Shown piece after piece: positions 4,211 through 38,969 of a DNA stretch of 64,000 nt. The stretch is taken from the sequence record LC739535.1; one strand, written 5' to 3'. The notes beneath the pieces were generated by a model, which made no database searches, was not told the origin of the DNA, and was given only the letters and a program-made list of their open reading frames with translations. Every line of letters starts with the position of its first letter. The first letter of the stretch is position 1. The stretch is from Escherichia phage phiWec186. The translations under genes and the position numbers were made by a program.

Positions 4211-4248
4211 AAAAGAAAAGGGAACCTTTGCGGGTTCCCTTTTTTATT
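4211..4248. terminator. bidirectional rho-independent terminator between convergent genes
   Basis: 8-bp stem AGGGAACC/GGTTCCCT flanked by an A-run upstream and a T-run downstream. Confidence 0.6.
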
Positions 4249-9076: not shown

Positions 9077-12000
9077 TTATGTCGTCGGAGTATCAATCAC
9101 CGGAGTAGGACGAATTACCGCAGTGTTACCAACCGCAACGTTGCTTGCGCTATTAGGAATAGTTGTGATACGTACTCCTGCTGCTGTCGCTGTTTGGATA
9201 GGATCTGCGATATCCACCTTCACTGGGTTGGTCCAAGTATCGTTATCCTGATAAGGGGCACGAGTGATTACTGTGTCCAAATCAGATCCACCTGGACCTG
9301 CACCTGCGATACGGATACGTGTACCTGCTGACAGTGGGTAATGATATAACCAAGAAGCATTTGTCGCTGTACCGTTAGGTGTCAGGTTCTGCACAATCGA
9401 TTTATCACCAACATTTGTCGCTCGGATACCGAAGGCTGGAATGTCTGGAATGTACGCACCACTTGTTGTTACAAGGAAGAACGTATTGTCTGCTTTAACG
9501 ATAATATCCCCTTTATCGAATTCTTTCCCAGTTGGGAAGTGCATCCCGTCAATGTTGCGACCTGGGATTGCTTCGATGTAGTAAGATTTACCAGTAGAGC
9601 CTACCAGAGCACCAATACCACCTGCGATGTTCGTATACATGTTCGCTTCAACGTTACAGTTGATACGATGAATATCCGAGTAACGGCAACGACTCCATTG
9701 AGGACGTCCAGTTACCATTGTGTTTCCATTCGGATAGCAGTTTACGTTCACCATTTCCAGAACTGACTTCTCTCTACGGAAGAATCCATCGTAGAAAGTA
9801 CCTGGACCAGATTCCGGTTGACCTACACACTCGAAAGAGTTACAAGTGATGTTAGCCATTGACAACCAAGAAGCGATACCAAACAATTGCAGAGCGTTAC
9901 AACGGATGTTATCGAAGCTAACGCGGTTCTCAAAACCTGGACCCGCTGATACACCTGCGAAGACACGTCCTGTAGCTGTATGTACGTTACGTACCGAGTA
10001 ATTGAAGCAAGGGTTTGATGGGCGACCCTGTGCAGGAACAACAGGTTTACCATCCTCGCCTAAAACTGCGTTCGTACCCCATTCCAGATAGATCATACGG
10101 ATTGCACTTGGCAACGTATTGTCGTCTGTAATAGGCTCACCATAAACACCATCGATCGTGAAATCTTTACAGCCGTACATTACAACAGCGCCTGTTGCAA
10201 GCCCTGTACCAACAGAAACTGTCTGGTCAGGATCACCGTGGATGTTCTGGATAGAAATGTTACGACCAACTTCTACGTGAACAATCTGGCGGCAACGTTT
10301 CGCAAATACGTTACGGATTGTAATGTTCTTACAATACTGCGTATCTGGAATGTCATAACCGTATGGACCTTTACCTGCTACACCGATACCGATACCCCAG
10401 TTAGAAAGAGGAATTGGTGCGTTCGTTCCGTCGATGTGAGACAAGTAGATGTTCTCAATAACACAACCTTCATCGTAGTGCTTGTTGATTACGTTCAGTT
10501 CGATTGCATCGCCCTGCATATCCATAAACGTCAAGTTACGGAAGACACCGCGACTAACTGGTTCGCCAGTACCTTGTTGAAGGATACCGTAAAGTCCGTT
10601 TTTAAATGTACAGTTGTCAATCTCAAAAGTACCTGGAATTGGGTTGCCCTGGAATACCAAGCTACCAACCTGTCCTGGACGAGGTGCACCATCCCACAAG
10701 CAGTCATAGATACGCACATCGCCACCCCAATACATTACACGGGAGTTGCGGAAAGTCGTACCTTCCACTTTACAGTTCTGTAGACGGTAGTCACGTTGTC
10801 CACGGAAGACACCACCAAGGAGGGTGATCCCAGTAATATCAAAAGAACTTGTAGTGAAGGTCATATCACAACCATAAGCATTCAGGATCTTGCTCTTGGT
10901 TGCTGCTGTTGCCACGAGAGCCGCTTGGAAAGCTGCTTCTTGAGTAGCGTACACTGCACTGTTTGCAAACTCGGACAGGTAAACAACATCAAACAGATCG
11001 TCAAACTTACCACCGTGTGGAGTTAACAGACCTTCTGTGTTTGTCAGTACCCAAGCATTTGGACCTACGCCACCAGAGGAGGCAAGGGTGTCACTCGCAG
11101 AGAGAGTTTTTGGCAAAGTGCCAGCCCAACGGTAACGACCTGCACCCATACCAATAGTCTGGTGTTTAAGGGTCAGGGTAATTTCATTACCGAAACTGGT
11201 AGGCAGATGTACATATTGCTGACGTTCAACTGCTAATGCTGCCAAGTCAACAGTACCAGAAGAGTGGGTAAGAACACCAGTATCTGATAAGCTAACAAAT
11301 GTCCCAGTTAAACCAGGTGGCAGGGTGTAAGCTATTTGGTTAGTGGCATCATACAGGGCTTTCAGACCTATTAAAGCTTGTCCTGATTTTGCGTAAGCCA
11401 CTTCATAATTCAGGAAACCATATTTACGAGCGATTGTCTGAAGAGGAACAGCGTTCATATCTTCGGTCAATGTTTCAGTAGTTGTTTCCAGGTTAGAAAT
11501 TCGGTTTTCGAGGTTAGGATCGTTTTCTGCGCTTGCTACAATCTTACCGATGTAAGCAAACAACTGATTAGGTAATCCGGTTGCAGGATCATGTCCAAGT
11601 GGTTCGGACAAGATGATCTGACTGTTCTCAATACGGAATGCATCACCCACAATCTGGATAACGCCGTTGATAGTCACAATAGCACTATCGAACACGTAAG
11701 GAGGACTGATTACTTTTTCATAACCTGTTGCAGAGGTATACAACCAAGGAATAACTTCACTTGGGAGTTGTTCAGTCTGCATTCCCCACAGCACCCAGTT
11801 ATTGTCCCCGACTGGAGTCCCTTGCATTGGGATAGGGTTCACCAGTGTTGCTGCTGGAGCGTAGTAGTATCCACTCAAGATTCCGTTCTGATAAAAACGG
11901 AGTTGGTTGAATACTGTTTCATTAGTCCCTTGCGCCCAGGCAATAGGACTTTTGAAGTAAAAGTTATCAACCAAAGCCTTACGTAAAGTCGGAATCAATC

Positions 12001-12127
12001 CTGATTCCGTATCAATACTTTCTGTTGCGCTTCCGTTGATGATATCGTGTATCTGGTTAGAAGAAAAGATTACCAGATCTACGCCCTGTTCCAGGGACGT
12101 AGCGGGATATGTTGGGAATAGTGTCAT
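9077..12127 (-). CDS. tailspike / depolymerase-like protein (probable beta-helix)
   Basis: 1016 aa; repetitive Asn/Gly/Val-rich segments typical of right-handed beta-helix tailspikes; position in fibre cluster. Confidence 0.5.
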   Translation of the reverse strand: MTLFPTYPATSLEQGVDLVIFSSNQIHDIINGSATESIDTESGLIPTLRKALVDNFYFKSPIAWAQGTNETVFNQLRFYQNGILSGYYYAPAATLVNPIPMQGTPVGDNNWVLWGMQTEQLPSEVIPWLYTSATGYEKVISPPYVFDSAIVTINGVIQIVGDAFRIENSQIILSEPLGHDPATGLPNQLFAYIGKIVASAENDPNLENRISNLETTTETLTEDMNAVPLQTIARKYGFLNYEVAYAKSGQALIGLKALYDATNQIAYTLPPGLTGTFVSLSDTGVLTHSSGTVDLAALAVERQQYVHLPTSFGNEITLTLKHQTIGMGAGRYRWAGTLPKTLSASDTLASSGGVGPNAWVLTNTEGLLTPHGGKFDDLFDVVYLSEFANSAVYATQEAAFQAALVATAATKSKILNAYGCDMTFTTSSFDITGITLLGGVFRGQRDYRLQNCKVEGTTFRNSRVMYWGGDVRIYDCLWDGAPRPGQVGSLVFQGNPIPGTFEIDNCTFKNGLYGILQQGTGEPVSRGVFRNLTFMDMQGDAIELNVINKHYDEGCVIENIYLSHIDGTNAPIPLSNWGIGIGVAGKGPYGYDIPDTQYCKNITIRNVFAKRCRQIVHVEVGRNISIQNIHGDPDQTVSVGTGLATGAVVMYGCKDFTIDGVYGEPITDDNTLPSAIRMIYLEWGTNAVLGEDGKPVVPAQGRPSNPCFNYSVRNVHTATGRVFAGVSAGPGFENRVSFDNIRCNALQLFGIASWLSMANITCNSFECVGQPESGPGTFYDGFFRREKSVLEMVNVNCYPNGNTMVTGRPQWSRCRYSDIHRINCNVEANMYTNIAGGIGALVGSTGKSYYIEAIPGRNIDGMHFPTGKEFDKGDIIVKADNTFFLVTTSGAYIPDIPAFGIRATNVGDKSIVQNLTPNGTATNASWLYHYPLSAGTRIRIAGAGPGGSDLDTVITRAPYQDNDTWTNPVKVDIADPIQTATAAGVRITTIPNSASNVAVGNTAVIRPTPVIDTPTT

Positions 12128-12133
12128 TTATAA

Positions 12134-12469
12134 TTAACCCTTACTCTGTGTACGTTTAGTAATATCCTCTAACATCATCTGGATCGTTGCATTCTTGAGG
12201 TCCATGATTTTTTCAATCTTCTGCTCAAGAGTAGTATTGTTCGCCAGTAATGTAGAGTTAATCTGATTCAGCATTTGAGTAAGTTCAGCTTTCGTTGCGT
12301 AAGTGGATTCGACGAAAACAAGTTTCTTTTCCAACTCACGGGCCTTGTCTTCGACCTTCTCCAAATCAACACCAAACTTATCTATTTTTTGTTTAAACAG
12401 GAACCAGATTAAACCGATTAGAGGGATGATTGCGTCCTTAGCAAGACCCCAGACTTCTTGAAATTCCAT
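12134..12469 (-). CDS. small membrane-anchored coiled-coil protein
   Basis: N-terminal hydrophobic segment AIIPLIGLIWFLF followed by a coiled-coil-like region. Confidence 0.45.
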   Translation of the reverse strand: MEFQEVWGLAKDAIIPLIGLIWFLFKQKIDKFGVDLEKVEDKARELEKKLVFVESTYATKAELTQMLNQINSTLLANNTTLEQKIEKIMDLKNATIQMMLEDITKRTQSKG

Positions 12470-12480
12470 ATTTGCATCCC

Positions 12481-13026
12481 TTATTTTGTTGGTAAGGTAG
12501 GCCAGTTAACCTCGTAAGGATATCCCTCTTGAACAGGAACACGGTTCAATTCCACAACATAAACCTGGAGTTGCTTCAGTTCCGCAAGTTCTTCGGGTGT
12601 CGCTATCTCAAGGTCTTTTGCATATTGCAAAGGAGTGATAAGGGCAACGGCTGCTTCTTGCTTATTCTTTATTTCAGCAGAAACCTTGACAATCATTTGT
12701 TCACGACTGTACTCTTTATCTTTCAGTGTAAGAGTTTCTAAGTCTAAAACCTTGTCACGGATATCTTCGAAACTTGTAATCTCAAAATCAACTTGTGCAA
12801 GAGACATGTTTTCGGGACACAACAGAGTAGGATCTGTGTTCCAAAAAACTATACGGTTCTGATCGTCAAACACAACTTTCATTTTGTCGTTTTTTAACAG
12901 ACCATCGCGTAATTCATACCAATCAAAACCCTGGTCGCAAAGTAGGAACAAAATGTTCTCTACTTCTACGAGTTCTCTTAGGGCGGGATCTTCTGGGATA
13001 TACTTCTTAAAATTAGTGTAGAGCAT
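12481..13026 (-). CDS. tail fibre assembly protein (Tfa / P2 gpG-like)
   Basis: C-terminal LQYAKDLEIATPEELAELKQLQVYVVELNRVPVQEGYPYEVNWPTLP matches the conserved Tfa C-terminal motif; lies directly after a fibre gene. Confidence 0.7.
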   Translation of the reverse strand: MLYTNFKKYIPEDPALRELVEVENILFLLCDQGFDWYELRDGLLKNDKMKVVFDDQNRIVFWNTDPTLLCPENMSLAQVDFEITSFEDIRDKVLDLETLTLKDKEYSREQMIVKVSAEIKNKQEAAVALITPLQYAKDLEIATPEELAELKQLQVYVVELNRVPVQEGYPYEVNWPTLPTK

Positions 13027-14088
13027 TTAGCCTCCAATATCGTACCAGTTTCCGTTCACGTTTCGCTGGAGACGTTTGAAGTAAACACCACCAATGTTAT
13101 CCGCAGAACTACGGCCTGTTTCCTGAACAATAATACCAGAAAGAACATAGCCGGAAGAACAAACGTATGTCCAAGACACTTCGTTACCTGGTGGGTAATA
13201 TACGCCTTGGCTGGTATAACGTATGTCACGAACAAAGTTACCATTCGCATAGTTATAGTTGTTACTGATCTGGTTTTGCAAGTTACTGTTCACGCTGTCA
13301 ATACGTGAGTTTAAGTTGTTGTTAACGTTGTTCAGGTTGTTTTGAACAGAGTTAATATTCGTTTGCAAGGTGTTCTGTAAAGAGCTTAAACGCGAGTTCA
13401 AGTAATCTAAACGAACCAGAGCATTGCCGTTCCCAGTATCTTGTCCACTATTAGATCGTGGATTATCAATCAGAACATAACCGCCATCATACAAACGTAC
13501 TGCACAGGATACGTTACCATTGGTAGGGTTCCTGCGATATATGTAAAGGTGTCCTCCGTTATTATATTCGGAAGAGATTTCACCGTTAGTTTGACCTGCA
13601 AAGTTTTTAAAGAAGATAGTAGCAGGATCTGAAGTAGATGTACCATTTACATAAATATCTCCACCATAGATAGCACCGCCGCCATCGCGTTTAACCAACA
13701 CGTTAGGGGTTACTGTCGTGCTTGTTGCATCTGTGATGTTTGAAGATAAGTGGTTGTGGCTATTATCTACAACTTGAATAGAAAGTGTTACTGCTGCATT
13801 CCCGTTCCAGGTTACTTCACCTGTTGCATCCCCTGACATTGTTATTTTAGTACCAACCAGAGGAAGATACGTATTTGGTAATGTTGGAAGAAACTCGTCA
13901 ACCAGATAACGAATCCATAATCCGTTATTGTTGAGTACCCAATTCATTTCTTCACAGGTCATGATTTGACCGTAATCCATACCCACGGTACGAATAATTT
14001 CTTTAGGTCGAATCTTGTTTAAGTTTTGTGTTCCTGGGAGGGTAACTGTTTCTACAGCCCAATCAGGATAGTATATTGGCTTCGCCAT
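13027..14088 (-). CDS. tail fibre protein
   Basis: Asn-rich repeats (NNLNNVNNNLNSRIDSVNSNLQN); sits between baseplate genes and Tfa. Confidence 0.6.
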   Translation of the reverse strand: MAKPIYYPDWAVETVTLPGTQNLNKIRPKEIIRTVGMDYGQIMTCEEMNWVLNNNGLWIRYLVDEFLPTLPNTYLPLVGTKITMSGDATGEVTWNGNAAVTLSIQVVDNSHNHLSSNITDATSTTVTPNVLVKRDGGGAIYGGDIYVNGTSTSDPATIFFKNFAGQTNGEISSEYNNGGHLYIYRRNPTNGNVSCAVRLYDGGYVLIDNPRSNSGQDTGNGNALVRLDYLNSRLSSLQNTLQTNINSVQNNLNNVNNNLNSRIDSVNSNLQNQISNNYNYANGNFVRDIRYTSQGVYYPPGNEVSWTYVCSSGYVLSGIIVQETGRSSADNIGGVYFKRLQRNVNGNWYDIGG

Positions 14089-14097
14089 TGGAACTCC

Positions 14098-14727
14098 TTA
14101 ATCGATTTGTTTCAGAAGCATACACATGCGTCCAGTTTCATCCCCTGTGGATTCCAAGTACAAGGAACCCAAACCACCAATACCATGAGGATCTTTGGTA
14201 GCGTAATAAGAGGTGAATCCAAAAGCTGATCCGGCTTTAGCTCCCAGTCGGTAGTTGCTTATAATTGGGAACACACTTAAAAGTTGCTCAAGAGCTTGAT
14301 CAGACTGAAGACACAAGTTATAAAAGAACACATCAAAGGATTTATTCAATCCCACATATGTGTTAATTGTATCTCGTTTTGTACCTGTGAAACGGGCGAA
14401 GATATCAATAATGTCCCCACGAGTCCCCGAAGAGGCAACACGATAAGCCCTGATTTTTAAAATTGTGCGGTACTCTTCATCATCAGAACCATTTCGTTCA
14501 ATACCCATCTCTTCACCAAGGAGATCAAGATAATCTCCCGTGGCTGTAGATATTAAACGGTGTTTAGCAAGATAGATCATTGCCTGATCTATCTTTTGCT
14601 TTTCACTTGATACGATGTAGAGGAGCTTGACAATGTTAGGGGAAGATTTAAAATCTTCAATCAACAGATCTTTAACGTCTTCATTGATATTCTCCCAAGT
14701 CGTTACATGGTCAACACTCACTGCCAT
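14098..14727 (-). CDS. baseplate protein (P2 gpI-like)
   Basis: Position after the gpJ-like gene; size about 200 aa; gene-order inference. Confidence 0.45.
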   Translation of the reverse strand: MAVSVDHVTTWENINEDVKDLLIEDFKSSPNIVKLLYIVSSEKQKIDQAMIYLAKHRLISTATGDYLDLLGEEMGIERNGSDDEEYRTILKIRAYRVASSGTRGDIIDIFARFTGTKRDTINTYVGLNKSFDVFFYNLCLQSDQALEQLLSVFPIISNYRLGAKAGSAFGFTSYYATKDPHGIGGLGSLYLESTGDETGRMCMLLKQID

Positions 14728-14729
14728 TT

Positions 14730-16217
14730 TTAGACTCCATACTCGTAGGAAATGTTATCAAGGTCGAAAGACGGGACAATATTGTAGGCAGGAACAATGT
14801 TCCCTTCTGTATATTTACTGTCGTCTTCATTATTAAGTTTAACATAAACACGGAGAGAAGTCAAGCGCCCAAAAGCAAGTGCTGCATAAATAACGCCTTT
14901 AATCTGGTCGTTAGTTACAGAAGAACCCAATTCGAAGTAGGCTTGCAGGTTATCCAGTGCTTTAACAATGTTTTCTTTCTCTGTTCCACTTAACGTTGTA
15001 CCATTGATTGTCTGGTATACAAGTTTCAAGGAGTACGTTGCAGTAGCACCAGGAGAGAAGCGGATAATCTCTTGTCCACCGTCTTCCGTCATGACAGTAA
15101 TGTTAGTTGTGCCATACGTCAAGGTATTGATTGGTTTAGTGTCGTAAATCACTTTAGCGACTTCTTCGGCACTCCCACCGTACACGATTGTCTGGAAACT
15201 CATTGCAGGTGCATGTTCCTGATCGTGGATTGTCGGGTTGTCGTAAATCTTAACCTTAGTTACGCCATCAGTTTGCAACAAGGCTTTAACGATAGCTGCG
15301 CGTGTACCTGCGTTTGCTTCATCAAGGTTATCGTTGAAACGTGAGCGGAACTCTGCGTCTGTCTCTACATCTCGTCCTGAAGAGAAAGCATAGAAGTTAC
15401 CAGAATCAAGGTAGCCTGTGAAGGTTGAAGAGATTCCCGAAATGGATTCCACACCTACCGGATTGTACCCTGCTTCCGCCCCTACCACCGGAATTTCACT
15501 CCACTTCATCCCAACAGGGACAGAAGCGTAGAATTTTATTGGTGTTACCAAACCAACAGGTTCTGCATCTCCCGCTGCTGCGAAGCCAACATAAACGTTA
15601 CTTGCGTCTGTGTGGATTAAACCCTGATCCGTAGTGGAGAGGTTGTCTCGAATAAAGTTTGCAAGATCTGTAATGAATGTCGAAGACGCTGGAGAGAGTA
15701 CACGACTGTTCAGACCACCATCATTTGCACTTTGTGCGTAGAAAGTTATGTTAGCCACACCTGTAGCTGTTGCATTCGCACGCGAGATTTGATATGCTGC
15801 GATCTTAGCATTCAACATGGTAGGTGCGCTGACATAATAGTTCATGTCGTTGTCTGCATTAAAATACGTATCTGTACCAAGTTCAAAAGTCCAAGGGGCT
15901 TTGTTGTTGCTTTTCACATAAGCAAAACCTGAACCAGGTGCAGCGGCTGAACGGTAGAAACCACGTTTGGAGAAGATCTCATCAAGGTAGATACCTTCGG
16001 CACCATCCAGTGTCTGGGTATTATAAACCCCTTGCATTCCTTCCCATAAGGTGTAGTCGGTATAAGCAATAATACGGAACAACTGCCCGAAGACAGTATC
16101 CTCCGAAGTCGCTGCATCAGCACCAAAGGTGTTCTTAAGTGCAGTCATGTAGTTGTTAAGTACATCGTCGAATGTCGGGATTACAAATCCCGCATCGGTT
16201 AAACCATATTCATCCAT
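14730..16217 (-). CDS. baseplate wedge protein (gpJ / gp6-like)
   Basis: 495 aa; position between gp25-like and gpI-like genes; gene-order inference. Confidence 0.55.
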   Translation of the reverse strand: MDEYGLTDAGFVIPTFDDVLNNYMTALKNTFGADAATSEDTVFGQLFRIIAYTDYTLWEGMQGVYNTQTLDGAEGIYLDEIFSKRGFYRSAAAPGSGFAYVKSNNKAPWTFELGTDTYFNADNDMNYYVSAPTMLNAKIAAYQISRANATATGVANITFYAQSANDGGLNSRVLSPASSTFITDLANFIRDNLSTTDQGLIHTDASNVYVGFAAAGDAEPVGLVTPIKFYASVPVGMKWSEIPVVGAEAGYNPVGVESISGISSTFTGYLDSGNFYAFSSGRDVETDAEFRSRFNDNLDEANAGTRAAIVKALLQTDGVTKVKIYDNPTIHDQEHAPAMSFQTIVYGGSAEEVAKVIYDTKPINTLTYGTTNITVMTEDGGQEIIRFSPGATATYSLKLVYQTINGTTLSGTEKENIVKALDNLQAYFELGSSVTNDQIKGVIYAALAFGRLTSLRVYVKLNNEDDSKYTEGNIVPAYNIVPSFDLDNISYEYGV

Positions 16218-16474
16218 TACTCATCCTCTTTGTTGTGTTCAGGGGTGGAAGACCTACCCCAACGCAGGTCTATTAGATTTTTCATTAGTCGTGAGGGAGT
16301 GACCATAAAAACAAAAGCCCAGCCCATCCATTCAGGAATTTCTTTTTCTATTCCTAAAAAGATGAACATGCCTGTCATTGTCATCATACCTACGGCGTTC
16401 CATACTTTAGTGGAACTTACCCCGTTCCCAGGGTAAGTGCAGAACATGCCACGTAAAAATTTTTTAATGCTCAT
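16217..16474 (-). CDS. small membrane protein (two predicted TM helices)
   Basis: Hydrophobic stretches MMTMTGMFIFLGI and WMGWAFVFMV. Confidence 0.4.
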   Translation of the reverse strand: MSIKKFLRGMFCTYPGNGVSSTKVWNAVGMMTMTGMFIFLGIEKEIPEWMGWAFVFMVTPSRLMKNLIDLRWGRSSTPEHNKEDE

Positions 16475-16475
16475 A

Positions 16476-19307
16476 TTATGGCCTCAAATCAATACCGATG
16501 TTTGGTAAGCTGGATTGTGCATTGCTTCGACGATACAAAGCGTACAGACCAAAGCCACGGAGGATTTCTCCAGAGTGGAAACCAAACGCCGGAGCGTTAT
16601 CATTTGCAGAATCAGGGTTAGAACTCCAAGAACCGTTCATTACATGGTTAGGACCAGCAACAACATAATTCTCTTGCAGGAGGTCAAAGCAACGATCCGC
16701 TACGATGGAAATATTAGGGATCTGGTTTTCCAGATTAGCCAACCCGATATAACAACAACCTGCCAAGAACAACGCAGACATGTGTGATGTAAAGTCCCAC
16801 GTAGGAGCCGAGACTGTGCCATCAGGCATGAAGATTGTAGGGGTACGCCCTTCGTTGTTGTCTTGGAACCACTTCAGATAGTTCACCCAGTTCTTAGTTA
16901 CTGTCATGAGTTTGGCTGGAATAGGTTCACCACGAGCTTGCAGTTCATGCAAACAACGAGCACCACAATAGAATGCACGAGCTTCATATCCGTCCCAAGC
17001 TTTTTCATTCCAGTGTTTCATTGTGAACTGGTTCTTTTCCCCGTACTTCAATGCATCCCAACGATCCCATACAAAGGCTTGAGCCATTGGTCCAGGCATA
17101 ACCGGATCAAATGTTTCATAGAACCACATTTGAGAGTCATAAAGGAAGTTGATACTTTCTGTTAAGCGTGTATACTCAATATTCTCACCAGCAAAGCAAT
17201 ACAATACTGGGTACTGATATCCAGGGTAGGGCAGTCCACGCCAACCATCAAAGAGCGCCGTATTAGGATCGCTAATGTTGGAGAATGGAATAATACCTGG
17301 TGTGTAATGGAGGCTATTCAGTTTGTAGTCAACAATTACGCAGTCGCCAAGTTTCGCGCTGTATGGATTTTGTGCTTGCAAAGAGATGCGGAAATACATT
17401 GTGTAATCATCACCATTTGCAGAAGAATACCGAGTAGGCACTTCATTCACACAATACCAATCAAACTGTGCGTTAACACCATTAACAGGATCAGTGTCCA
17501 GCCCAATGTTGATTTGGTCGAGAGCACTAATGTCGATAGTTGCAGGTTTAGGATCTGTTTCTGGGTGATTCGGTTGCCAAGAGCTTAACTGGAAACTTGC
17601 CGCAGTTATTGTCTTAGTTACCCAAGTCCCACCAGTTTTCTCCAACATAGCCCACCATCTCCATCCGTCTTTATCCGTCAATGTGATATTGAAATCATCA
17701 TTGTAAGTACGGTAAGATAAAGATTGGAGTGGTGCTACTTCTTCATCCAGTAGCCAGAAGCCAATAGAGATTCCACCGTCAGTATCCATAACCGCAGTGC
17801 AAATCTGATCGCTAATGTTGGCAGGTAAAATATTCGTCGTATACTGGAAGTTTACCACAGTATTGTCACCCCAGTCAATAACATTTCGCGGATCAGCAAC
17901 AATATACTGTCCACCGCCTGGAGGTGTCGAACGAATAAAACTGGATAATGGAATATCCATTGATTGGATAGAGGTTGTCGCTGTCGGAATACCGCAACGA
18001 TAATCTACCAAATCGTCATTCGTTTTTGTCTTACTCAAAGACAATTCAGGACGGAAGATAACAGGGACACCCGCATCATCCACACCTGCAAACTCTACAC
18101 GCAATTTGGAATTATTATCCACACGGAACCAAATAGCTTGTTGCTCCATTGTCGTCTGTGCAGCCACCTTCTGACGAATGGTAATGTACCCTTGAGCATC
18201 ACGACCAAAATCAGCCGTAGATCCTGATGGATAGTAATAATCATAACTAATACCATCTGTGAACGGAATACTTGCCAATGTGGATTTACGGAAGAACTTG
18301 TCGAAACGGTCGATATCAGAGTAATCAATACAAACCATCAAAGAAGACTTCCACGCCAGACGATACTTTTCTTCTCCGGTGATCTTGTACATCATGTAAC
18401 AAGCATCGCACCACCAAGTTTCAGCATCGGAAGCATTATCTGCAAACGAAATATCAATCGGAACGTTTACAGGGCGGTTATGCCACATTTCGTTACGTCC
18501 GATCAGATAACCACCTTTGTCTACAGGGTTGCATGTTGCGTAGTTGAACTTATAGTTTCCAGTGACTGTCTTATTTTTCAGTTGAACCGTACCATACTCG
18601 GAAAGAGAGTGTCCAGTAGAAAGAATGTTTCCGTCCCAGTCTACTTTACGTCCCAGACGATCAATAATCCAATCCACATCCCACTGACTGCCCTTAACAT
18701 CCCAATCTGTTGATCCGTCTGCTTTGGTGCCATACACTGTAGCGTTTACAGAGTTCCATCCCAGATTACCGTTGAAAGCAAACCAAGCTTTATCCAGGTA
18801 TTCTCCCCAATGCGGAGCGCCTTTAGGAATCACTGTACGTCCGTTGGTCCAAGTCATCACGCTTCCTTTAAAGCCGCCGTGAGTTGGATACCCATCGTCT
18901 GTCAGAGGGTAGTGAGCCAAACGAGGCTCCTTTCCGTTGATGATCCAGTTAGGACGATATTTTGCCGGAGGATTAGGGATTGGCTGACCACCAAAAAAGT
19001 GGTCAATGTAAGCTTGCCAGTAAGTTTTAGCCAGGTCAAGATACTTAACATCGCCAGTCCCCAAATAAGCATAAGCACACCCCAGAACTAAAACAGATTG
19101 ACCTTCTGTGGTCGCATCTCCGTTGGGCTGTCCTTCCTGTCCAGTCCAGTTGATGAAGTGTCGGTTGTTTGCAAGAACATGCTCTGGGTTGATAAGGTAG
19201 TGCTGTACCGTTGGATCGATTGTCAAACCTGTGCTTCTTTCCATGAACTGGACATGACCATCAATCAGTTGGAAAGCATTATCAATATTGTGCTTAATTT
19301 GAGACAT
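16476..19307 (-). CDS. large baseplate-associated protein, possible carbohydrate-active receptor-binding protein
   Basis: 943 aa, Trp/Tyr/Asp-rich; inserted between gp25-like and gpJ-like genes. Confidence 0.4.
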   Translation of the reverse strand: MSQIKHNIDNAFQLIDGHVQFMERSTGLTIDPTVQHYLINPEHVLANNRHFINWTGQEGQPNGDATTEGQSVLVLGCAYAYLGTGDVKYLDLAKTYWQAYIDHFFGGQPIPNPPAKYRPNWIINGKEPRLAHYPLTDDGYPTHGGFKGSVMTWTNGRTVIPKGAPHWGEYLDKAWFAFNGNLGWNSVNATVYGTKADGSTDWDVKGSQWDVDWIIDRLGRKVDWDGNILSTGHSLSEYGTVQLKNKTVTGNYKFNYATCNPVDKGGYLIGRNEMWHNRPVNVPIDISFADNASDAETWWCDACYMMYKITGEEKYRLAWKSSLMVCIDYSDIDRFDKFFRKSTLASIPFTDGISYDYYYPSGSTADFGRDAQGYITIRQKVAAQTTMEQQAIWFRVDNNSKLRVEFAGVDDAGVPVIFRPELSLSKTKTNDDLVDYRCGIPTATTSIQSMDIPLSSFIRSTPPGGGQYIVADPRNVIDWGDNTVVNFQYTTNILPANISDQICTAVMDTDGGISIGFWLLDEEVAPLQSLSYRTYNDDFNITLTDKDGWRWWAMLEKTGGTWVTKTITAASFQLSSWQPNHPETDPKPATIDISALDQINIGLDTDPVNGVNAQFDWYCVNEVPTRYSSANGDDYTMYFRISLQAQNPYSAKLGDCVIVDYKLNSLHYTPGIIPFSNISDPNTALFDGWRGLPYPGYQYPVLYCFAGENIEYTRLTESINFLYDSQMWFYETFDPVMPGPMAQAFVWDRWDALKYGEKNQFTMKHWNEKAWDGYEARAFYCGARCLHELQARGEPIPAKLMTVTKNWVNYLKWFQDNNEGRTPTIFMPDGTVSAPTWDFTSHMSALFLAGCCYIGLANLENQIPNISIVADRCFDLLQENYVVAGPNHVMNGSWSSNPDSANDNAPAFGFHSGEILRGFGLYALYRRSNAQSSLPNIGIDLRP

Positions 19308-19780
19308 TAGATCACTCCCGCCATCACCATACTTCCAATCCAGGAAGCACCGTTGTCTAAACTGATAAATTCAAAAGTATCGATCGCACCTTGACGATAA
19401 CTCAAAACAGGTGCACGCCCAAAACTCCACTTAACCGACGCTGGCCATACCACTTTATTCGCCCCACTACCCTGACGCAAAGCCAGACTAAAGTTTAAAA
19501 CTGTTGCTGTGGTAACGGGAATGTTTGTAAAGCTGATCGTACAAGTAGCAGAAGAGAGGGTAGCATAAAAATACTCTGCTGATCCCACATCTAAAGCTAA
19601 GGTACTGGTGGCGGTGCCACGGGTACTTAAACGGTTACGAGTAACCCCAGCACCATTCAAAAGAACACGAAGGGACGTTTTCTTAGTTATCCCTGCCTGA
19701 TCCGTTACAAAGAAATCTGTATCTGAAACAGACGTGGTTTGAACCAAATCTGTAACTTTGATAGTTGTTAAATCTGCCAT
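19307..19780 (-). CDS. hypothetical structural protein
   Basis: ORF within the baseplate cluster, translationally coupled to its neighbours. Confidence 0.45.
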   Translation of the reverse strand: MADLTTIKVTDLVQTTSVSDTDFFVTDQAGITKKTSLRVLLNGAGVTRNRLSTRGTATSTLALDVGSAEYFYATLSSATCTISFTNIPVTTATVLNFSLALRQGSGANKVVWPASVKWSFGRAPVLSYRQGAIDTFEFISLDNGASWIGSMVMAGVI

Positions 19781-19781
19781 C

Positions 19782-20402
19782 TTATACTCCTGTCATAGCC
19801 GTAAGGCCGAAGTTATTACTTGTTGAAAGAACTGAACCAGAATCGCTAACCATCATGCGTTCAACAGCAGTTTCCGTCGCCCACTCATTCCACCAAGTAG
19901 AATATGTATTTTCAGGCAGACCAACAAAGTTAATGAAGCGGTACAGACGGTTAGAAGATTCAACAATGGTATATGCTTCACAAGTGATTGCTGCATTATC
20001 ATCGCCAGCTTCTGGGTAAATAAATTCTTCAGAAGGTTGGGTGTTGAAACTTGTTGTTACTGTGTCTGCGCCTACTGTGACAACAACATCCATATTATAA
20101 TAGCGTTGGTCACGATCGTAATAAGATTTGTAAGAATTGATTGTGTCAATATAAATGTTCTTGGCAATCTCTGCCAGGAAGATTCGGTCCACAATATCTT
20201 TCTTTCGTGCTACACCGATAATCTCTTGCAGGTAAGGAACACCGAACGTGGTGTTAAGGAACCATTCCCCACGATATGTTTTGAGGGTGATCCCTAATGT
20301 CTGCGCTGCAATCTCGGTACGAGTGGTTGTCAAAACAAGATCCCCATCATCCATGATGAGGTCGTTGTCTGATCCCAATTTTAAATCATATGGGATACCC
20401 AT
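19782..20402 (-). CDS. baseplate wedge protein (gp25 / GpW-like)
   Basis: N-terminal GSDNDLIMDDGDLVL...QTLGITLKTYRGEWFLNTTFGVPY resembles the GpW/gp25 fold signature. Confidence 0.55.
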   Translation of the reverse strand: MGIPYDLKLGSDNDLIMDDGDLVLTTTRTEIAAQTLGITLKTYRGEWFLNTTFGVPYLQEIIGVARKKDIVDRIFLAEIAKNIYIDTINSYKSYYDRDQRYYNMDVVVTVGADTVTTSFNTQPSEEFIYPEAGDDNAAITCEAYTIVESSNRLYRFINFVGLPENTYSTWWNEWATETAVERMMVSDSGSVLSTSNNFGLTAMTGV

Positions 20403-20404
20403 TA

Positions 20405-21139
20405 TTATGCTCCTGAAGGTTTCAAGGATTCCGCACTTGAGCTTCCGCTCTGAATGTTGCGAACCGTATGGGTGTGGGTATGGAAGCCAATACCATTACC
20501 GTCTGTCATCAATCCGTTCTGATCAATCTGTAGTCCGTTAATGTTTGCAGACGTGCCTTTGAAAGTCATGACACCACCTGTCAAATCCAGGGTGCCGGAA
20601 CCGTCTGTCATTGTTATTCCAGAAGGAGTAATATCAATCTTCATTCCTTGACTATTCCATATCGATATAGTGCCAGAAGGATCGAAAGATGCATACGTGT
20701 TTTTGTTATTTGAAATAACTACCTTCTCGGAATCTACTGCTTCTGTTGAATCGGTGCCTGTGGAAATCTTAGGAATAAAGCAAATCGGATATAAACCGCA
20801 AGGCTGCATTAATGTAGTCGTTGTGGCTGCTTCTCCAGAAGTTTGCATTGCATTCGAAGGATCTCGTTCAGAGAAAATAACAACACCAATATCACCGGAT
20901 TTAATAGGGAAGGAGATACGCCCTGTACCTCCTCCATTAACCATAAAAGGAACATCGTGGAAGGTTGGATAGTCGATAGAATCTTCTTCTGATCGCGTAT
21001 TCTTCACAATGGATTCCAGTGTCAGTGTTTTTGCACCGTAATTAACACCTGTAACTCGCACTGGTAATGAGGTATGCACCTCTGCCAGTTGTTCTGTCAT
21101 CATGCCACGCATTGCTGTGACAAAGTTCAAAGCATCCAT
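20405..21139 (-). CDS. baseplate central spike (gpV-like)
   Basis: Gly/Thr-rich beta repeats and a C-terminal HTHTHT motif; position before the gp25-like gene. Confidence 0.55.
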   Translation of the reverse strand: MDALNFVTAMRGMMTEQLAEVHTSLPVRVTGVNYGAKTLTLESIVKNTRSEEDSIDYPTFHDVPFMVNGGGTGRISFPIKSGDIGVVIFSERDPSNAMQTSGEAATTTTLMQPCGLYPICFIPKISTGTDSTEAVDSEKVVISNNKNTYASFDPSGTISIWNSQGMKIDITPSGITMTDGSGTLDLTGGVMTFKGTSANINGLQIDQNGLMTDGNGIGFHTHTHTVRNIQSGSSSAESLKPSGA

Positions 21140-22586: not shown

Positions 22587-23321
22587 TTACCCTCCGTTAT
22601 TCGACGGTGTATTAGTATCTCTTGCAGCATTTTGGTTAATTGGGTTAGTGACTTTAGCACCACCAGTTGGAGCCTTGCTCTTAACCTCGCCACCAGTAGA
22701 TTTGTTCGGGGCAGTCTTCACAGCTATCGCGTTAGTTGTTGCAGTGCTGACCAAACGAATCTGCTCCAATTCCAGGTTGAACTGCATAGCGAATTCTGAA
22801 CGATATTCGTAAGTGTAACCTTTCAGGATCACGTTCTCGAAAGTACGGTGTTCTGTTAATAGAACTATCGGTTGACGAGCATCAAAAATCTGATCAAGGT
22901 ACTCGATTGCTTGGGAAATACGTGTTCCATTAACCCCTGCACTGTAAAGCTGATCACGCATCAAACGTACAGGCGTTTCTGTAATAACACCTGTCAATTT
23001 AAAAGTGTTGTTGTTTATTTTGACGTTATCACTCACTGTACTGCCGGATTCAACAGGGAAGCTTGTGATATCTGCTGAACGAGTTACTCCAACTTCCGGT
23101 GCGGAGTCGAAAGTAATCGCCATAAAGTTTTGTATGTATTGATCACTTGAGCTATTGTAAACACTGGCTAAGATACAAAAACCGTTATCACCTTTCACCG
23201 TGGAGGCGGAGTTATTCGTATTTTGTGTTGAGTTCACCTCTTGCTCGGATTTGTAGACGGCTCTTACCGACTGTTGTGGAGTCATTGCTGCCATGATAAC
23301 CTCATAGTAATGGTAATGCAA
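22587..23321 (-). CDS. hypothetical tail protein
   Basis: ORF in the tail module, downstream of the tape measure. Confidence 0.45.
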   Translation of the reverse strand: MHYHYYEVIMAAMTPQQSVRAVYKSEQEVNSTQNTNNSASTVKGDNGFCILASVYNSSSDQYIQNFMAITFDSAPEVGVTRSADITSFPVESGSTVSDNVKINNNTFKLTGVITETPVRLMRDQLYSAGVNGTRISQAIEYLDQIFDARQPIVLLTEHRTFENVILKGYTYEYRSEFAMQFNLELEQIRLVSTATTNAIAVKTAPNKSTGGEVKSKAPTGGAKVTNPINQNAARDTNTPSNNGG

Positions 23322-23396: not shown

Positions 23397-23425
23397 CTTG
23401 ACTACCATGATCCGCCTTGCTACAC
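23397..23425 (+). promoter_or_regulatory. sigma70-like promoter (TTGACT, 17 bp spacer, TACACT)
   Basis: Near-consensus hexamers read directly, followed by AAGGAGG and ATG at 23452. Confidence 0.55.
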
Positions 23426-23451
23426 TGTATTTATTAACTAAGGAGGAAATT

Positions 23452-24465
23452 ATGGGCGTGATTAAAGGTTGGGACATTCAGAAGAAAGAATGTGAAGAAG
23501 TGGCAAGACCAGGTATTACTGTTCTTGGATTTGTTGAACCGTGGAATGGTGCACATACCAAACTGATGCTGAAATGTGAGAAGCATGGGGAATGGAATAC
23601 AACCTCCATCAACAACTTCAAAAAGAATGGTTCTGGTTGTAATGGTTGTAGAGCGGATATATGTGGTGCAAGAGCAGAAGGGAATAGCTTTGCAAGTAAA
23701 AATGCTATCTCAGATGAGCAACACATTAAGGATTTCTTGGCTACCGGATTGTTTGCAGAGGGGACAACCTTCGTCAATACAGGTGTGAAAACAAAAGGTA
23801 ATCACAACTGCGTGTGGAAAGTAAGTTGCCCTGTTTGTGCTGTGGATGTATATTCTCAAGCTGGTTTATGTGATGGTAGTTTTGAAGGTCTGACTACACA
23901 CCTTAAGGCTGGAAAGGTTCCTTGTCGTTGCTCTCCACGTCATTGCTATTCTAAAGACCAATGGTTGTTTAGATTTCAGTTAATGTGTGAAGAAAAAGGT
24001 TATACTTTCATCAAGGCCATCTACGAAGGGGAAGCATACTCTCATGGAGATGTTGAGTATGCTTGTCCAGAACACGGCTCACAACGCATGACTGTGAAGA
24101 ACCTCATGTCAGGTAAAGGTTGTCCAGAGTGTGCCAATAAAACACAACAGTTCTGTTATATCAATGAAGTGTATGATGAAGATAATAATCTCTGCGCTCT
24201 TAAATTTGGAATTGCCAATGATGCTGAACGTAGGATCAAAGGTCAGAACTCGAAGAATGCTTTCACAATGCAACAGAAAGCTGTCTACTTCTTTGATGAT
24301 ATCAAGTCGTGTCGAGCAGCAGAAAGGAAGTGTTTGAAGATGTTGAAGTGCGGTGTTGTGAATAAATTTCAATTGCAGGATGGACACACAGAAACAACCC
24401 ATCTGGACAATTACGAAATTATTGAGGCTATTTACGAAAGTTTTGGAGGGGTGTTACAGAAATGA
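23452..24465 (+). CDS. Cys-rich protein with three zinc-ribbon-like repeats and a C-terminal GIY-YIG/T5orf172-like domain; putative free-standing homing endonuclease
   Basis: Three repeats of C..HG...G.GC..C; C-terminal CYINEVYDEDNNLCALKFGIANDAERRIKGQ resembles GIY...YIG...R...E; opposite strand to the surrounding tail genes, with its own promoter. Confidence 0.45.
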   Translation: MGVIKGWDIQKKECEEVARPGITVLGFVEPWNGAHTKLMLKCEKHGEWNTTSINNFKKNGSGCNGCRADICGARAEGNSFASKNAISDEQHIKDFLATGLFAEGTTFVNTGVKTKGNHNCVWKVSCPVCAVDVYSQAGLCDGSFEGLTTHLKAGKVPCRCSPRHCYSKDQWLFRFQLMCEEKGYTFIKAIYEGEAYSHGDVEYACPEHGSQRMTVKNLMSGKGCPECANKTQQFCYINEVYDEDNNLCALKFGIANDAERRIKGQNSKNAFTMQQKAVYFFDDIKSCRAAERKCLKMLKCGVVNKFQLQDGHTETTHLDNYEIIEAIYESFGGVLQK

Positions 24466-24467
24466 AA

Positions 24468-24492
24468 AAAGGGGCCGAAGCCCCTTTCTTAG
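24468..24492. terminator. bidirectional rho-independent terminator
   Basis: GGGGC-CGAA-GCCCC hairpin with an A-run upstream and T-rich tract downstream. Confidence 0.6.
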
Positions 24493-26444
24493 TTACCACC
24501 AGATTGTCCACTTAAAGTAGCTAAAGTTAAACGGTTGAAAACATTGTTACCACTGTTCTGAATACGAGCATCCAACATATTACCAAACTCCGAAGACGGG
24601 TTGATTGTTACGTTGATCAGATCACTCGGAATAGCAATCGTGTTTTCTACAATAGGTTGGTTACGAGCCAGATTAACGTTTGGCGTATAAGCTGTTTCAC
24701 GCAAATTCTCTAAAGGATTCCCGAAACCGAAAGCATGTGTTCGAGTTTCTTCTCCTCGGAACATTCTTCCAACGTCTTGAGTATCAATTCCAGTCCACTT
24801 ATAAAGGAAGTCGGCTACTGGGTTGGTATCTCCTGATTGTGTTGCGGCGTACAATTTGTCCGGTATAGTTTTATTAGGATCAGAATCCGGTCCGAAGATA
24901 GATGGTAAGTTTGTCACTAACCATTTATTAATATCTTCCGTGATACCGATAATCTCTGTACCAAACTTAGCAACATTCAGTGTGGCATTTGCAAACTCCA
25001 CCCCAAGATTCTTGGCAAAATTGTCCAAAGATTTAACGTTATCTAACCAAGATTCGTCTTTAGGTATTGCACTCATAAATCCTTCCAGGAAATAGTTCTG
25101 CATCCCTTGACCAACCAAACCTATTGTTGCAGTTAAACGTGTGTACTGTTTAGAAGCTTCCATTTGCTCATTAGTCAATGCAGCACCAGTACGTTGAAGC
25201 ATACGGAGGGTTTCTTGGAAGCCTTCTCCGTTCTTGCTAAACATACGTTGGTAATGCATGAGGTCATCTCCAAGGTTCTCAAGAAGACGACCAATCTGTG
25301 CCGAGTTCATGCCGCGACGCTCACCTTCATTCACAGTTGCCTGGATGAAAGCTAACGGATCGTTCTGCATGTGCTTAATTTGCGAAGGGTTCCAGCCGAA
25401 CATGTTCATGATATCGTTGATACCGTTGTCCCCGCCACGCCATTTTCCTTTCTTCTCGTCCCATTCAGAAGCCATCATCGAGTTACCTAAACGTTCACGA
25501 ACGTCTTTAAGGTTATCGATTGACTTGATAATGTTTGCCGAGTCAACACCGTTCTGTTCACCCCAAGCAGTCATTGTCATAATGGCGTTGGCGTTTGCCT
25601 GAACGTTCTCTGCACCACGACCTACAAACTTGATACGATCATTAGCATTTTGCAAAGTGTTCCCTACAACAGAGCCACCTGCAAATAACCCTGCACCGAT
25701 CATAGAAGAAACCATCATACGAGGGTTAAGACCTAAAGCACCATCTCGCATTTGGGAATACTTACGTTCCTTATCTCGACGTTGTTGTGCCAATTCTCGT
25801 TTATGGTTACGTTCAATATCGCGCAACTCTTTATCACGCATACGTTGACGTTGCTTGGCTTCTGCTTCCAGTTCTCGACGAATCCTACGGCGACCACGAA
25901 CCTCATCCTCAATATCTTTCGTTTTTTCTCTGTGGGATTTACGAAGGTTATCAAGCTGATGGGCCAGAGTTTGGTTCATACGTTGAAGAGTGATATCTCC
26001 ACGTTTGTATGATTCTACAGAGGCATCCATGATTTGTTTTGCTTGGCGTTGTGCATCTATGGAAGCTTTGGTATATTGCATACCACGCTTCTCAAAATTC
26101 TCCATGCGGAGGTTGCCTAAATCGTTACGACGAGCTTGGAGTTCTGCTGCGCGTTCTTCTGGTGTTTTCTTACCTGGTTTCGTTGGACGACCAGGACCGG
26201 AGGTAGTTCCACCACCTTTTGGAGCAGAAGGGGGAGCAGGGCGAGCAGGGAAAGTCTGCGCTTTACGCATTTCTCTTTCGATCTCTTTCATCTGCTGCCT
26301 AAATTTACTCATGTTTAAGGTAGGTTGGATTTTTTCAGCGAACCTTTTAATACTTTCGACAGAATCTTTGGCCTCTTTGAGACTGTTCTTGTCCACCTTA
26401 AATGTGACTACGTTACTGATTTTTGAGGCATTAATATCTAACAA
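24489..26444 (-). CDS. tail tape measure protein
   Basis: 651 aa; long Arg/Glu/Lys-rich helical N-terminal region and Gly/Met-rich middle; follows the chaperone gene. Confidence 0.7.
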   Translation of the reverse strand: MLDINASKISNVVTFKVDKNSLKEAKDSVESIKRFAEKIQPTLNMSKFRQQMKEIEREMRKAQTFPARPAPPSAPKGGGTTSGPGRPTKPGKKTPEERAAELQARRNDLGNLRMENFEKRGMQYTKASIDAQRQAKQIMDASVESYKRGDITLQRMNQTLAHQLDNLRKSHREKTKDIEDEVRGRRRIRRELEAEAKQRQRMRDKELRDIERNHKRELAQQRRDKERKYSQMRDGALGLNPRMMVSSMIGAGLFAGGSVVGNTLQNANDRIKFVGRGAENVQANANAIMTMTAWGEQNGVDSANIIKSIDNLKDVRERLGNSMMASEWDEKKGKWRGGDNGINDIMNMFGWNPSQIKHMQNDPLAFIQATVNEGERRGMNSAQIGRLLENLGDDLMHYQRMFSKNGEGFQETLRMLQRTGAALTNEQMEASKQYTRLTATIGLVGQGMQNYFLEGFMSAIPKDESWLDNVKSLDNFAKNLGVEFANATLNVAKFGTEIIGITEDINKWLVTNLPSIFGPDSDPNKTIPDKLYAATQSGDTNPVADFLYKWTGIDTQDVGRMFRGEETRTHAFGFGNPLENLRETAYTPNVNLARNQPIVENTIAIPSDLINVTINPSSEFGNMLDARIQNSGNNVFNRLTLATLSGQSGGN

Positions 26445-38642: not shown

Positions 38643-38969
38643 TTACTTACTGATAATCCCTTTCTCTTGCAGAGCCTTAATGTAGTTTTGCAGACCGATT
38701 ACTTTATTACGATCTTGACTCCAGAGAACATTGTTTGTGGTTCCGTTGTCAACAACTTCTGAACGAGAAACACCTTTCGCCACTTGTTGATCCGTATACG
38801 GCACTGGCTCACTTACACCCTCCATAAGAGAGGATTCTGGAGCTTTGACTTCTTGTACCGCAACAGCTTTACATTCATCAATTAGAATCGGGGAGGCTTT
38901 TGTTGAGGATGCGCAACCCGTCATCATTAGGGCCGAAGCAAGACATAGACCCAGTAGTAGTTTTTGCAT
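38643..38969 (-). CDS. putative outer-membrane spanin lipoprotein (Rz1-like)
   Basis: Signal peptide with lipobox-like LMMTGC; 5' end overlaps the upstream i-spanin-like ORF. Confidence 0.45.
   Translation of the reverse strand: MQKLLLGLCLASALMMTGCASSTKASPILIDECKAVAVQEVKAPESSLMEGVSEPVPYTDQQVAKGVSRSEVVDNGTTNNVLWSQDRNKVIGLQNYIKALQEKGIISK

Follow-up and report, generated by a model that had tools for sequence, protein, structure and literature searches.

Gene order and boundaries of the inserted unit

A 64,000-nucleotide stretch of Escherichia phage phiWec186 (LC739535.1), here called the window, encodes within its tail region a large protein of 943 residues and a small membrane protein of 85 residues, both placed among genes of the baseplate wedge. 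Our main subject is the 943-residue protein, predicted to be a glycosidase-type barrel, together with the 157-residue putative adaptor protein encoded directly upstream of it. The genes of the locus are the following.

14730–16217, minus strand: 495-residue baseplate J-like (gpJ-like) wedge protein, the downstream boundary (Pfam Baseplate_J, E 9e-9)
16217–16474, minus strand: 85-residue small membrane protein, phi92 gp144 orthologue (ATG-started open reading frame; phrog_1322)
16476–19307, minus strand: 943-residue tail protein, phi92 gp141 orthologue (ATG-started open reading frame; phrog_2871)
19307–19780, minus strand: 157-residue adaptor, phi92 gp140 orthologue and first gene of a two-gene module (phrog_9017)
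19782–20402, minus strand: 206-residue gp25-like sheath initiator, the upstream baseplate context (phrog_120; phi92 gp139)
20405–21139: gp138-type spike protein, 72% identical to its phi92 orthologue

The 943- and 85-residue genes are part of one long block of co-directional tail genes. The stop codon of the 157-residue gene overlaps the start of the 943-residue gene (TAATG), a 1-base gap separates the stop of the latter from the start of the 85-residue gene, and the stop of the 85-residue gene overlaps the start of gpJ. The 943- and 85-residue open reading frames (ORFs) are present exactly as the initial annotation had placed them, and they are real genes and not chance ORFs. The larger protein matches phrog_2871 (‘tail protein’) over residues 1–932 (E = 0, 1455 bits) and the smaller one matches phrog_1322 (‘membrane protein’) at E 1e-26, while tblastn recovers homologues of the two in 531 and 371 phage records, respectively, with 520 records covering at least 80% of the 943-residue query.

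The region is 100% identical to that of Escherichia phages phiWec179 and phiWec181, of which phiWec179 is a phi92-like myovirus, and its gene order is that of phi92 (Stephanstirmvirinae). Synteny extends over phi92 gp138–gp141 and gp144–gp148 at 70–86% identity, except for the fibre-assembly gene (24%). By protein, identity is 70% for the 206-residue protein (19782–20402) to gp139, 80% for the 157-residue protein (19307–19780) to gp140, 74% over 935 residues for the 943-residue protein to gp141, 80% for the 85-residue protein to gp144, 81% for the gpJ-like protein to gp145, 86% for the gpI-like protein to gp146 and 76% for the short fibre to gp147. The 943-residue gene is the syntenic orthologue of phi92 gp141 and PVP-SE1 gp50 and is not peculiar to the phiWec186 genome; the pair as a whole has full-length orthologues in phi92 (gp141/gp140), PVP-SE1 (gp50/gp51) and rV5 (gp42/gp43), which belong to PHROG 2871 and PHROG 9017. 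The order spike, gp25-like protein, adaptor and barrel is common to phi92 and the window. They differ in what follows gp141, where phi92 carries, within 11886–16810 of its locus, gp142 (an N4 gp64-like putative deacetylase fibre) and gp143 (an endosialidase) ahead of gp144; no homologue of either was found anywhere in the 64-kb window. The family itself was already known, though uncharacterised, as a tail-protein family: Gp141 is entered as a tail ‘glycosidase’ in the part of a 2017 review that deals with the multivalent adsorption proteins of phi92 (PMC5380687, citing Schwarzer 2012). The window gene is the expected orthologue in that family, from an already sequenced phage.

The database relatives include records whose host labels look doubtful. 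The region of record OR584014.1, labelled Pseudomonas phage PsgM04F, has 94.6% DNA identity to that of this E. coli phage, and about 20 ‘Campylobacter phage’ records hold close homologues of these E. coli phage genes, of rV5 or phi92 type.

The upstream neighbour of the 943-residue gene had initially been taken for a gp25-like protein. This assignment has to be corrected, as the 157-residue protein (19307–19780) matches only ‘tail fiber protein’ PHROGs (phrog_9017 at E 1e-64, phrog_7760 and others) and phi92 gp140. The gp25-like gene proper lies one gene beyond it and encodes the 206-residue protein, which matches phrog_120 (‘baseplate wedge subunit’, E 1e-18) and whose phi92 counterpart, gp139, was assigned as the sheath initiator by cryogenic electron microscopy (cryo-EM; PMC13450770). 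The gp25-like gene and gpJ are thus separated by three genes instead of two. In Klebsiella phage FBKp34, a member of the same subfamily, the order is spike, gp139-like protein (44%), membrane protein (32%), J (42%), I (48%) and fibre (39%), with neither an adaptor nor a barrel gene at that position. The accessory inserted unit is therefore the pair of 157- and 943-residue genes, and the 85-residue gene belongs to the backbone. The initial proposal of an insertion holds for the 943-residue gene and fails for the 85-residue gene. Linkage between these two genes was rejected on the grounds that FBKp34 has the membrane protein gene without the cassette and that in rV5 some 17 kb separate its homologue from gp42. 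In phi92, gp144 stays beside gpJ, and gp142 and gp143 part it from gp141.

Domain architecture of the 943-residue protein and its putative adaptor

Full-length searches of Pfam, NCBIfam and the PDB with the 943-residue sequence gave no match, and PDB sequences searched with a profile of the family gave none either. A confident AlphaFold2 model from 30 homologues (predicted local distance difference test, pLDDT, 86; predicted template modelling score, pTM, 0.80) places helices at residues 8–24, 67–104, 293–330 and 712–928, which together make an (alpha/alpha)6 barrel. The barrel is split by a beta-rich insertion (residues 119–286) and a large beta region (residues 347–686), amounting to about 510 residues of beta domains. 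In the order of the protein, with CBM standing for carbohydrate-binding module, the parts are the following.

18954–19307, minus strand: barrel part 1, residues 1–118, holding the TTEGQS motif with E68 (model helices 8–24, 67–84 and 87–104)
18450–18953, minus strand: beta-rich insertion A, residues 119–286 (all-beta in the model)
18270–18449, minus strand: barrel hairpin, residues 287–346, holding the NASDAE motif with D294 (model helices 293–310 and 313–330)
17250–18269, minus strand: two tandem CBM-like beta-sandwich domains, residues 347–686, the variable region
16479–17249, minus strand: barrel part 3, residues 687–943 (model helices 712–733, 774–791, 798–816, 841–856, 866–879 and 909–928)

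As modelled, the protein is a six-hairpin (alpha/alpha)6 glycosidase-type barrel with two CBM-like domains. Glycoside hydrolase (GH) family 8 gives the closest fold resemblance to the barrel, with GH76, GH105 and GH88 scoring almost as well and GH48 and sugar epimerases also found, and residues 347–686 adopt a predicted beta-jelly-roll fold resembling known CBMs. No solved structure among the matches listed shares the whole architecture, and none of the 60 structural matches listed is a beta-helix protein. The possibility of a classical fibre or trimeric beta-helix tailspike was rejected, as the model contains no beta-helix and the sequence no Tail_spike_N domain. The description of the protein as rich in Trp and Tyr holds (W 3.6%, Y 5.4%), with both Trp and the sum of the two (9.0%) ranking top among 15 window proteins compared.

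Conservation is unevenly spread over these parts. Invariant positions make up 14–20% of the barrel and insertion A, the latter being the most conserved segment of the protein (20% invariant positions in alignment A1) and one for which no Pfam family was matched. They are scarcest, at 0–10% per 30-residue window, in the CBM-like region, which is also where homologues have an RCC1-type insertion or a duplicated domain. In one gp141-family homologue (P0117) an RCC1-like domain is inserted in the CBM-like region, and the 891-residue tail protein of the window (4247–6922, minus strand) has an RCC1-like beta-propeller and a Big_2 domain, which hints at binding domains being shuffled among tail proteins.

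We compared the 943-residue protein with 33 relatives ranging from 42% down to 19% identity, giving a set of 34 sequences. Q726 is present in all 34, Q698 in 33 and D294 in 32; E68, Q70, Y697, W771 and R777 are each kept in 31, W298 in 30, E914 in 29 (with Asp in 2 more) and D751 in 28. These residues are kept also in the relatives at 19–23% identity, and by the helix boundaries of the AlphaFold2 model they fall at or just ahead of the N-termini of barrel helices, the place of the active site in six-hairpin enzymes. The TTEGQS (E68) and NASDAE (D294) motifs are in register with TSEGQS and SASDGD of E. coli BcsZ in an hhalign alignment that is non-significant overall; TSEGQS of BcsZ is the motif that we take to hold its catalytic Glu.

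GH8 belongs to clan GH-M and comprises inverting beta-1,4-glycanases such as E. coli BcsZ and Clostridium CelA. The 943-residue protein shares with it the predicted (alpha/alpha)6 barrel fold and differs in having no significant sequence relation to it and in a barrel broken by the beta domains. Membership in GH8 was tried by hhalign and rejected: against BcsZ alone the E-values were 0.27 for the full-length family alignment and 0.16 for the barrel-only one, and against an alignment of 21 BcsZ sequences, a shallow profile in which all homologues are at least 60% identical, the E-value was 0.043 with a probability of 1.2%. We therefore retain GH8 only as a motif resemblance. The Pfam GH8 family (PF01270) gave no match even at E ≤ 10, with either the full protein or the barrel-only construct, and the only Pfam match of the latter was to GH76 at E 0.005, below the cut-off. 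When 1.84 billion cluster representatives were searched exhaustively with a profile of the family, only 379 relatives were returned, none of them a recognised enzyme of GH8 length, and the gp141 family is therefore, by sequence, isolated from classical GH families. Judging from the model, the protein is GH8-like in fold; it is probably catalytic, with no demonstrated membership in GH8. Of the checks that the initial annotation had proposed, structure prediction thus gave glycosidase-type and CBM-like folds, and the search for carbohydrate-active families gave no significant sequence match.

We also considered whether the 943-residue protein could be the ‘deacetylase’ lateral fibre targeting enterobacterial common antigen (ECA) of the BASEL paper. 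This candidate was rejected, as N4 gp64 has no significant similarity to the 943-residue protein and matches phi92 gp142 instead (E 1e-31), together with an rV5 ‘baseplate protein with EPS depolymerase activity’ (EPS, exopolysaccharide; E 4e-23); N4 gp66 also has no similarity to the 943-residue protein. Since the window has no gp142 homologue, the candidate ECA-binding fibre of the gp142/N4 gp64 type appears to be missing from this phage. A separate, weak local similarity to the C-terminal region of N4 gp64 covers 56 residues of insertion A (residues ~120–175; 18783–18950) at 32–34% identity and E 0.006–0.012, and arises independently in the 943-residue protein and in phi92 gp141 (9358–9525 of the phi92 locus). 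It may be a chance likeness or a small shared element.

The adaptor was examined through alignment A2, which holds the upstream proteins of eight lineages: phi92 and phiWec179 (Stephanstirmvirinae), rV5 (Vequintavirinae), the Rosemountvirus emhyr, the jumbo phage PBECO4 (Asteriusvirus), the podoviruses ISAO8 and Atoyac15 (Autographiviridae) and Philippe (Schitoviridae). A short protein annotated as tail fibre lies directly upstream of the homologue of the 943-residue protein in 8/8 of these. The eight upstream proteins have unrelated N-terminal parts and share only their last ~100 residues, in which 12 positions are invariant (L75, Q103, G106, N108, V110, W112, W118, L126, D134, G144, W147 and G149). 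In the window this domain is placed as follows.

19310–19618, minus strand: C-terminal ~100-residue domain of the adaptor (residues ~55–157), the proposed docking domain (alignment A2)

The N-terminal parts would be lineage-specific anchors that connect the domain to different tail structures. In the Autographiviridae, a portion of this part is labelled as a T7 tail-fibre domain in the record of Atoyac15, an Aeromonas podovirus. In a ninth case, a sipho-type Enterobacter prophage, a 560-residue upstream protein has a major-tail-protein-like N-terminus and ends in the adaptor domain (hhalign probability 99.3%, E 2e-20). In a P2-like prophage with the order V, W, J, the next protein is Tail_P2_I fused to the barrel (Pfam E 7e-52), with the adaptor domain absent, and remoter members of the family begin with Phage Tail Collar, a weak gpM-like ‘minor tail’ match, DUF7941 or Calx-beta. 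Homologues of gp141 thus occur in myo-, podo- and sipho-type phages. The simplest reading of these sequence comparisons is a portable pair, in which a lineage-specific anchor with a conserved docking domain would carry the barrel as its cargo. Within the stretch shown, nothing but the pair is annotated as a fibre or spike in the two podoviruses of the Autographiviridae, and it would therefore have to serve as the receptor-binding protein there.

Two loci show unusual arrangements. The Enterobacter prophage has two paralogous major-tail-protein-like genes, a plain one of 156 residues (11878–12348) and the one of 560 residues with the docking domain (7319–9001), with the gp141 homologue between them; display of the barrel protein from a tail-tube-like subunit is a possibility. 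The metagenomic protein P0294 (293 residues) consists of a barrel fragment (its residues 12–194, equivalent to query residues 6–188) followed by the adaptor domain (200–287, E 4e-20). This is the reverse of the expected order; a rearranged locus, or an artefact of assembly or of gene calling, may lie behind it.

Proposed role of the pair in adsorption

We propose, with a probability of roughly 0.6, that the 157- and 943-residue proteins make up a module of two proteins, carried on the virion and directed at a glycan of the bacterial surface, with the barrel most likely cleaving that glycan. The lineage-specific N-terminal part of the adaptor would fix it to the periphery of the baseplate, and its C-terminal ~100-residue domain would hold the 943-residue protein. 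At adsorption, the CBM-like domains would bind polysaccharide on the bacterial surface, and the barrel pocket, predicted to be lined by E68, D294, D751, E914 and conserved aromatic residues, would most likely cleave it. Cleavage would open the way to the outer membrane for the baseplate, together with the colanic-acid-degrading spike and other fibres encoded nearby.

The existence of the genes, their orthology, the fold, the residue conservation, the co-occurrence with the adaptor domain and the fusions to anchors are observations that speak for this proposal. Virion presence is drawn from papers on relatives, and we infer the binding of adaptor to barrel, the position at the baseplate, catalysis and the substrate. 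In rV5, gp42 and gp43 were found in virions by mass spectrometry (PMC3606486); we matched these gene numbers to the homologue of the 943-residue protein and to its adaptor through the neighbouring 222- and 1272-residue proteins in the rV5 locus. In phage S144, gp17 (111 kDa, 25 peptides, 33% coverage) and gp16 were found in virions, and the study describes for gp17 a ‘hydrolase’ signal in HHpred and a shape that resembles neither a fibre nor a spike (PMC7432712). The suggestion in the initial annotation of an additional receptor-binding or polysaccharide-degrading protein is, as far as computation goes, supported: the model has two CBM-like domains and an enzymatic fold, acidic and aromatic residues are kept down to ~20% identity, and the homologue rV5 gp42 and the probable homologue S144 gp17 are present in purified virions. 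The outcome named there as a refutation, a protein missing from virions and lacking an enzymatic fold, is therefore not what the model and the relatives show.

Several points weigh against the proposal. The catalytic assignment of the barrel rests on resemblance of predicted fold and motifs; no significant match to any CAZy-type family was obtained from Pfam, hhalign or the PDB profile search, and we found no enzymatic assay for any member of the gp141 family in the literature. Docking of the barrel on the adaptor is read from gene adjacency and co-occurrence, and none of the 386 collected sequences has the adaptor domain fused upstream of the barrel in one polypeptide. S144 gp17 is probably the gp141 homologue, an assignment made from size, gene order and related annotations (matches H54 and H55) and not by alignment. 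A 2026 cryo-EM study of phi92 neither modelled nor mentioned gp141 (PMC13450770). Finally, the 943-residue protein is conserved like the core baseplate proteins (74% to phi92, against 70–86% for its neighbours), which is unusual for a determinant of host range and would also fit a structural role.

This last point leads to the strongest alternative, which we consider unlikely, namely that the 943-residue protein serves as a structural hub without catalysis, forming at the baseplate rim a rigid scaffold (in phi92, the fibre I arm or the fibre II base) that carries other spikes and fibres, its barrel being a relic fold or serving for binding only. Besides the core-like conservation, it would account for the fibre I arm, a scaffold-like structure, and the whole of fibre II, which were left without gene assignment in the cryo-EM study (PMC13450770), and for the genes of gp142 and the endosialidase gp143 directly following gp141 in phi92. 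Some homologues have C-terminal extensions of ~700 residues that include Gly_rich_2, as if distal fibre parts grew from the barrel. However, preservation of the Glu/Asp/Asp/Glu set and the aromatic residues to ~20% identity would be unexpected in a pure scaffold, and the CBM-like domains argue for contact with a glycan. The Autographiviridae podoviruses, with no other annotated fibre or spike in the stretch shown, and the window phage, which keeps the 943-residue gene though it lacks gp142 and gp143, also speak against a hub.

A virion-associated cell-wall enzyme, with the barrel cutting peptidoglycan or another periplasmic beta-1,4 glycan for tube penetration, is very improbable: GH8, the closest fold family, does act on beta-1,4-linked glycans, and a universal substrate would agree with the conservation of the family in phages of many Gammaproteobacteria (Escherichia, Vibrio, Aeromonas, Pseudomonas, Stenotrophomonas and Shewanella). 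Against this, the protein takes the place of a fibre or spike, following a T7-type fibre N-domain or joined to P2 gpI or a tail-collar domain, and is not at the spike, the hub or the tape measure, the usual seats of penetration enzymes. It shows neither a lysozyme nor a transglycosylase fold, and its variable CBM-like domains suggest a fit to differing surface glycans.

The proposed glycan-targeting pair can be compared with two kinds of known system. Classical depolymerase tailspikes (P22 gp9, the tailspike proteins (TSPs) of CBA120, the colanic-acid-degrading spike phi92 gp150 and its window homologue at 9077–12127) are, as proposed for the pair, virion-borne and active on polysaccharides and are also encoded in the tail-fibre region, but they are trimeric right-handed parallel beta-helices, a fold absent from the 943-residue protein. 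The adaptor–tailspike systems of podoviruses (the gp37 type of K1E, K1-5 and SP6; gp63.1/gp66 of the N4-like phage G7C; TSP branching in CBA120) likewise combine a lineage-specific anchor with an exchangeable enzymatic receptor-binding protein, the pair moving between unrelated phages. Their cargo is a trimeric beta-helix spike, whereas here the predicted cargo is a helical barrel and the predicted docking element is the ~100-residue C-terminal domain of the adaptor. The K1-5 and G7C adaptor systems are covered in the literature (PMC13450770, PMC8594841).

A more far-reaching version of the proposal can be put forward only tentatively, and we regard it as doubtful as a whole. The gp141-type barrel would be a new, sequence-isolated GH family and a non-beta-helix, probably monomeric depolymerase or receptor-binding protein, and it would make, together with the docking domain, a pair that plugs in universally and has been moved onto myovirus baseplates, podovirus fibre stubs, siphovirus tail-tube-like proteins and P2 gpI. 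Being unusually well conserved in phages of many Gammaproteobacteria, it would point to a widely shared glycan, for example a biofilm polysaccharide of cellulose or poly-N-acetylglucosamine (PNAG) type, or a conserved element of lipopolysaccharide (LPS) or ECA, and it would be the missing part of the phi92 fibre I arm or fibre II.

Phages of the phi92-like and rV5-like groups are prized for a very broad host range, which is credited to their several differing fibres and spikes. A glycosidase-fold barrel with CBM-like domains and a dedicated adaptor is a concrete candidate for the fibre I arm and fibre II densities of phi92, and a pair that serves in myo-, podo- and sipho-type phages might be exchanged as a module to engineer host range. 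If the 943-residue protein is active, its CAZy-type family and its structural class among phage depolymerases would both be new. What is new in the present analysis is the corrected boundaries of the module, the domain architecture and the rule of an adaptor docking domain across morphotypes.

The 85-residue membrane protein and other tail genes

The 85-residue gene is a backbone gene of the baseplate operon, translationally coupled to gpJ and separate from the two-gene module. Its product has a basic N-terminus, one clear hydrophobic segment (residues ~24–42), a weaker and shorter one (~46–62) and a charged C-terminal tail. Of the two transmembrane (TM) helices initially assigned to it, the first is clear and the second short and weak, which makes two TM helices plausible and not certain. 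Across six lineages (alignment A4) the invariant residues are F6, S20, T22, W25, G29, M33, F37, E48, W49, L63, R71 and G73, with the conserved motifs S-x-T-K-x-W, PEW and LRWG. No Pfam or NCBIfam family was found for it, and PHROGs gives only ‘membrane protein’.

In six lineages the homologous genes always lie inside baseplate or fibre clusters, with neighbours that differ by lineage. The homologue is directly upstream of gpJ in phi92 and FBKp34, while in rV5, Certrevirus and Plateaulakevirus its surroundings are tail-fibre and baseplate genes with no gp141 homologue close by, and it stands in rV5 and Certrevirus directly upstream of a large tail-fibre gene. Our best guess is a small inner-membrane, non-virion accessory protein of holin-like or exclusion type. 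Stated more narrowly, as a holin or antiholin resembling class II, or else a protein of superinfection exclusion or receptor masking, made late with the baseplate and neither part of the virion nor receptor-binding, the idea is possible though on the doubtful side. It agrees with the small size, the one to three TM segments of holins, the basic N-terminus and the highly charged C-terminal tail, and PHROGs places the family in the category ‘moron, auxiliary metabolic gene and host takeover’. The varying place of its gene within tail-fibre or baseplate clusters in five lineages recalls llp of T5, an exclusion gene beside the receptor-binding gene. The components of the phi92 baseplate for which cryo-EM gave models do not include it (PMC13450770). 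On the other side, no holin family was matched in Pfam, NCBIfam or PHROGs, no endolysin gene is adjacent and the spanin-like genes are ~22 kb off (38643–39285), the rV5 authors proposed another protein, gp129, as holin, the second hydrophobic segment is short, and translational coupling to gpJ could mean a role in assembly.

Two further spike or fibre proteins of the window carry Tail_spike_N (CBA120 TSP1/gp66-type) and are encoded at 6964–9009 (minus strand) and 9077–12127 (minus strand); one has collagen-like repeats and the other is of the colanic-acid-degradation type (phrog_6117, E 3e-265). Their attachment system differs from that of the gp140/gp141 pair. The short tail fibre (13027–14088) is 76–80% identical to phi92 gp147 only over its first 242–271 residues and differs in its C-terminal tip, and the fibre-assembly protein downstream of it (12481–13026) is 24% identical to phi92 gp148. 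By sequence comparison, this suggests that the receptor-binding tip of the short fibre and its chaperone were swapped together.

The window further contains 10 transfer RNA (tRNA) genes at 40506–42563 (minus strand), for Met (two), Ile, Pro, Gln, Gly, Thr, Tyr, Ser and Arg, and listed ORFs that overlap them (e.g. 40123–40620) are probably not genes. Between the Dit-like gene (22587–23321) and the tape-measure gene (24489–26444), a 355-residue gene lies on the opposite strand (23398–24465, plus strand), with three CapR-homology repeats, treble-clef zinc-finger-like matches and a local flip in GC skew. It looks like an inserted mobile or defence-related gene within the tail operon.

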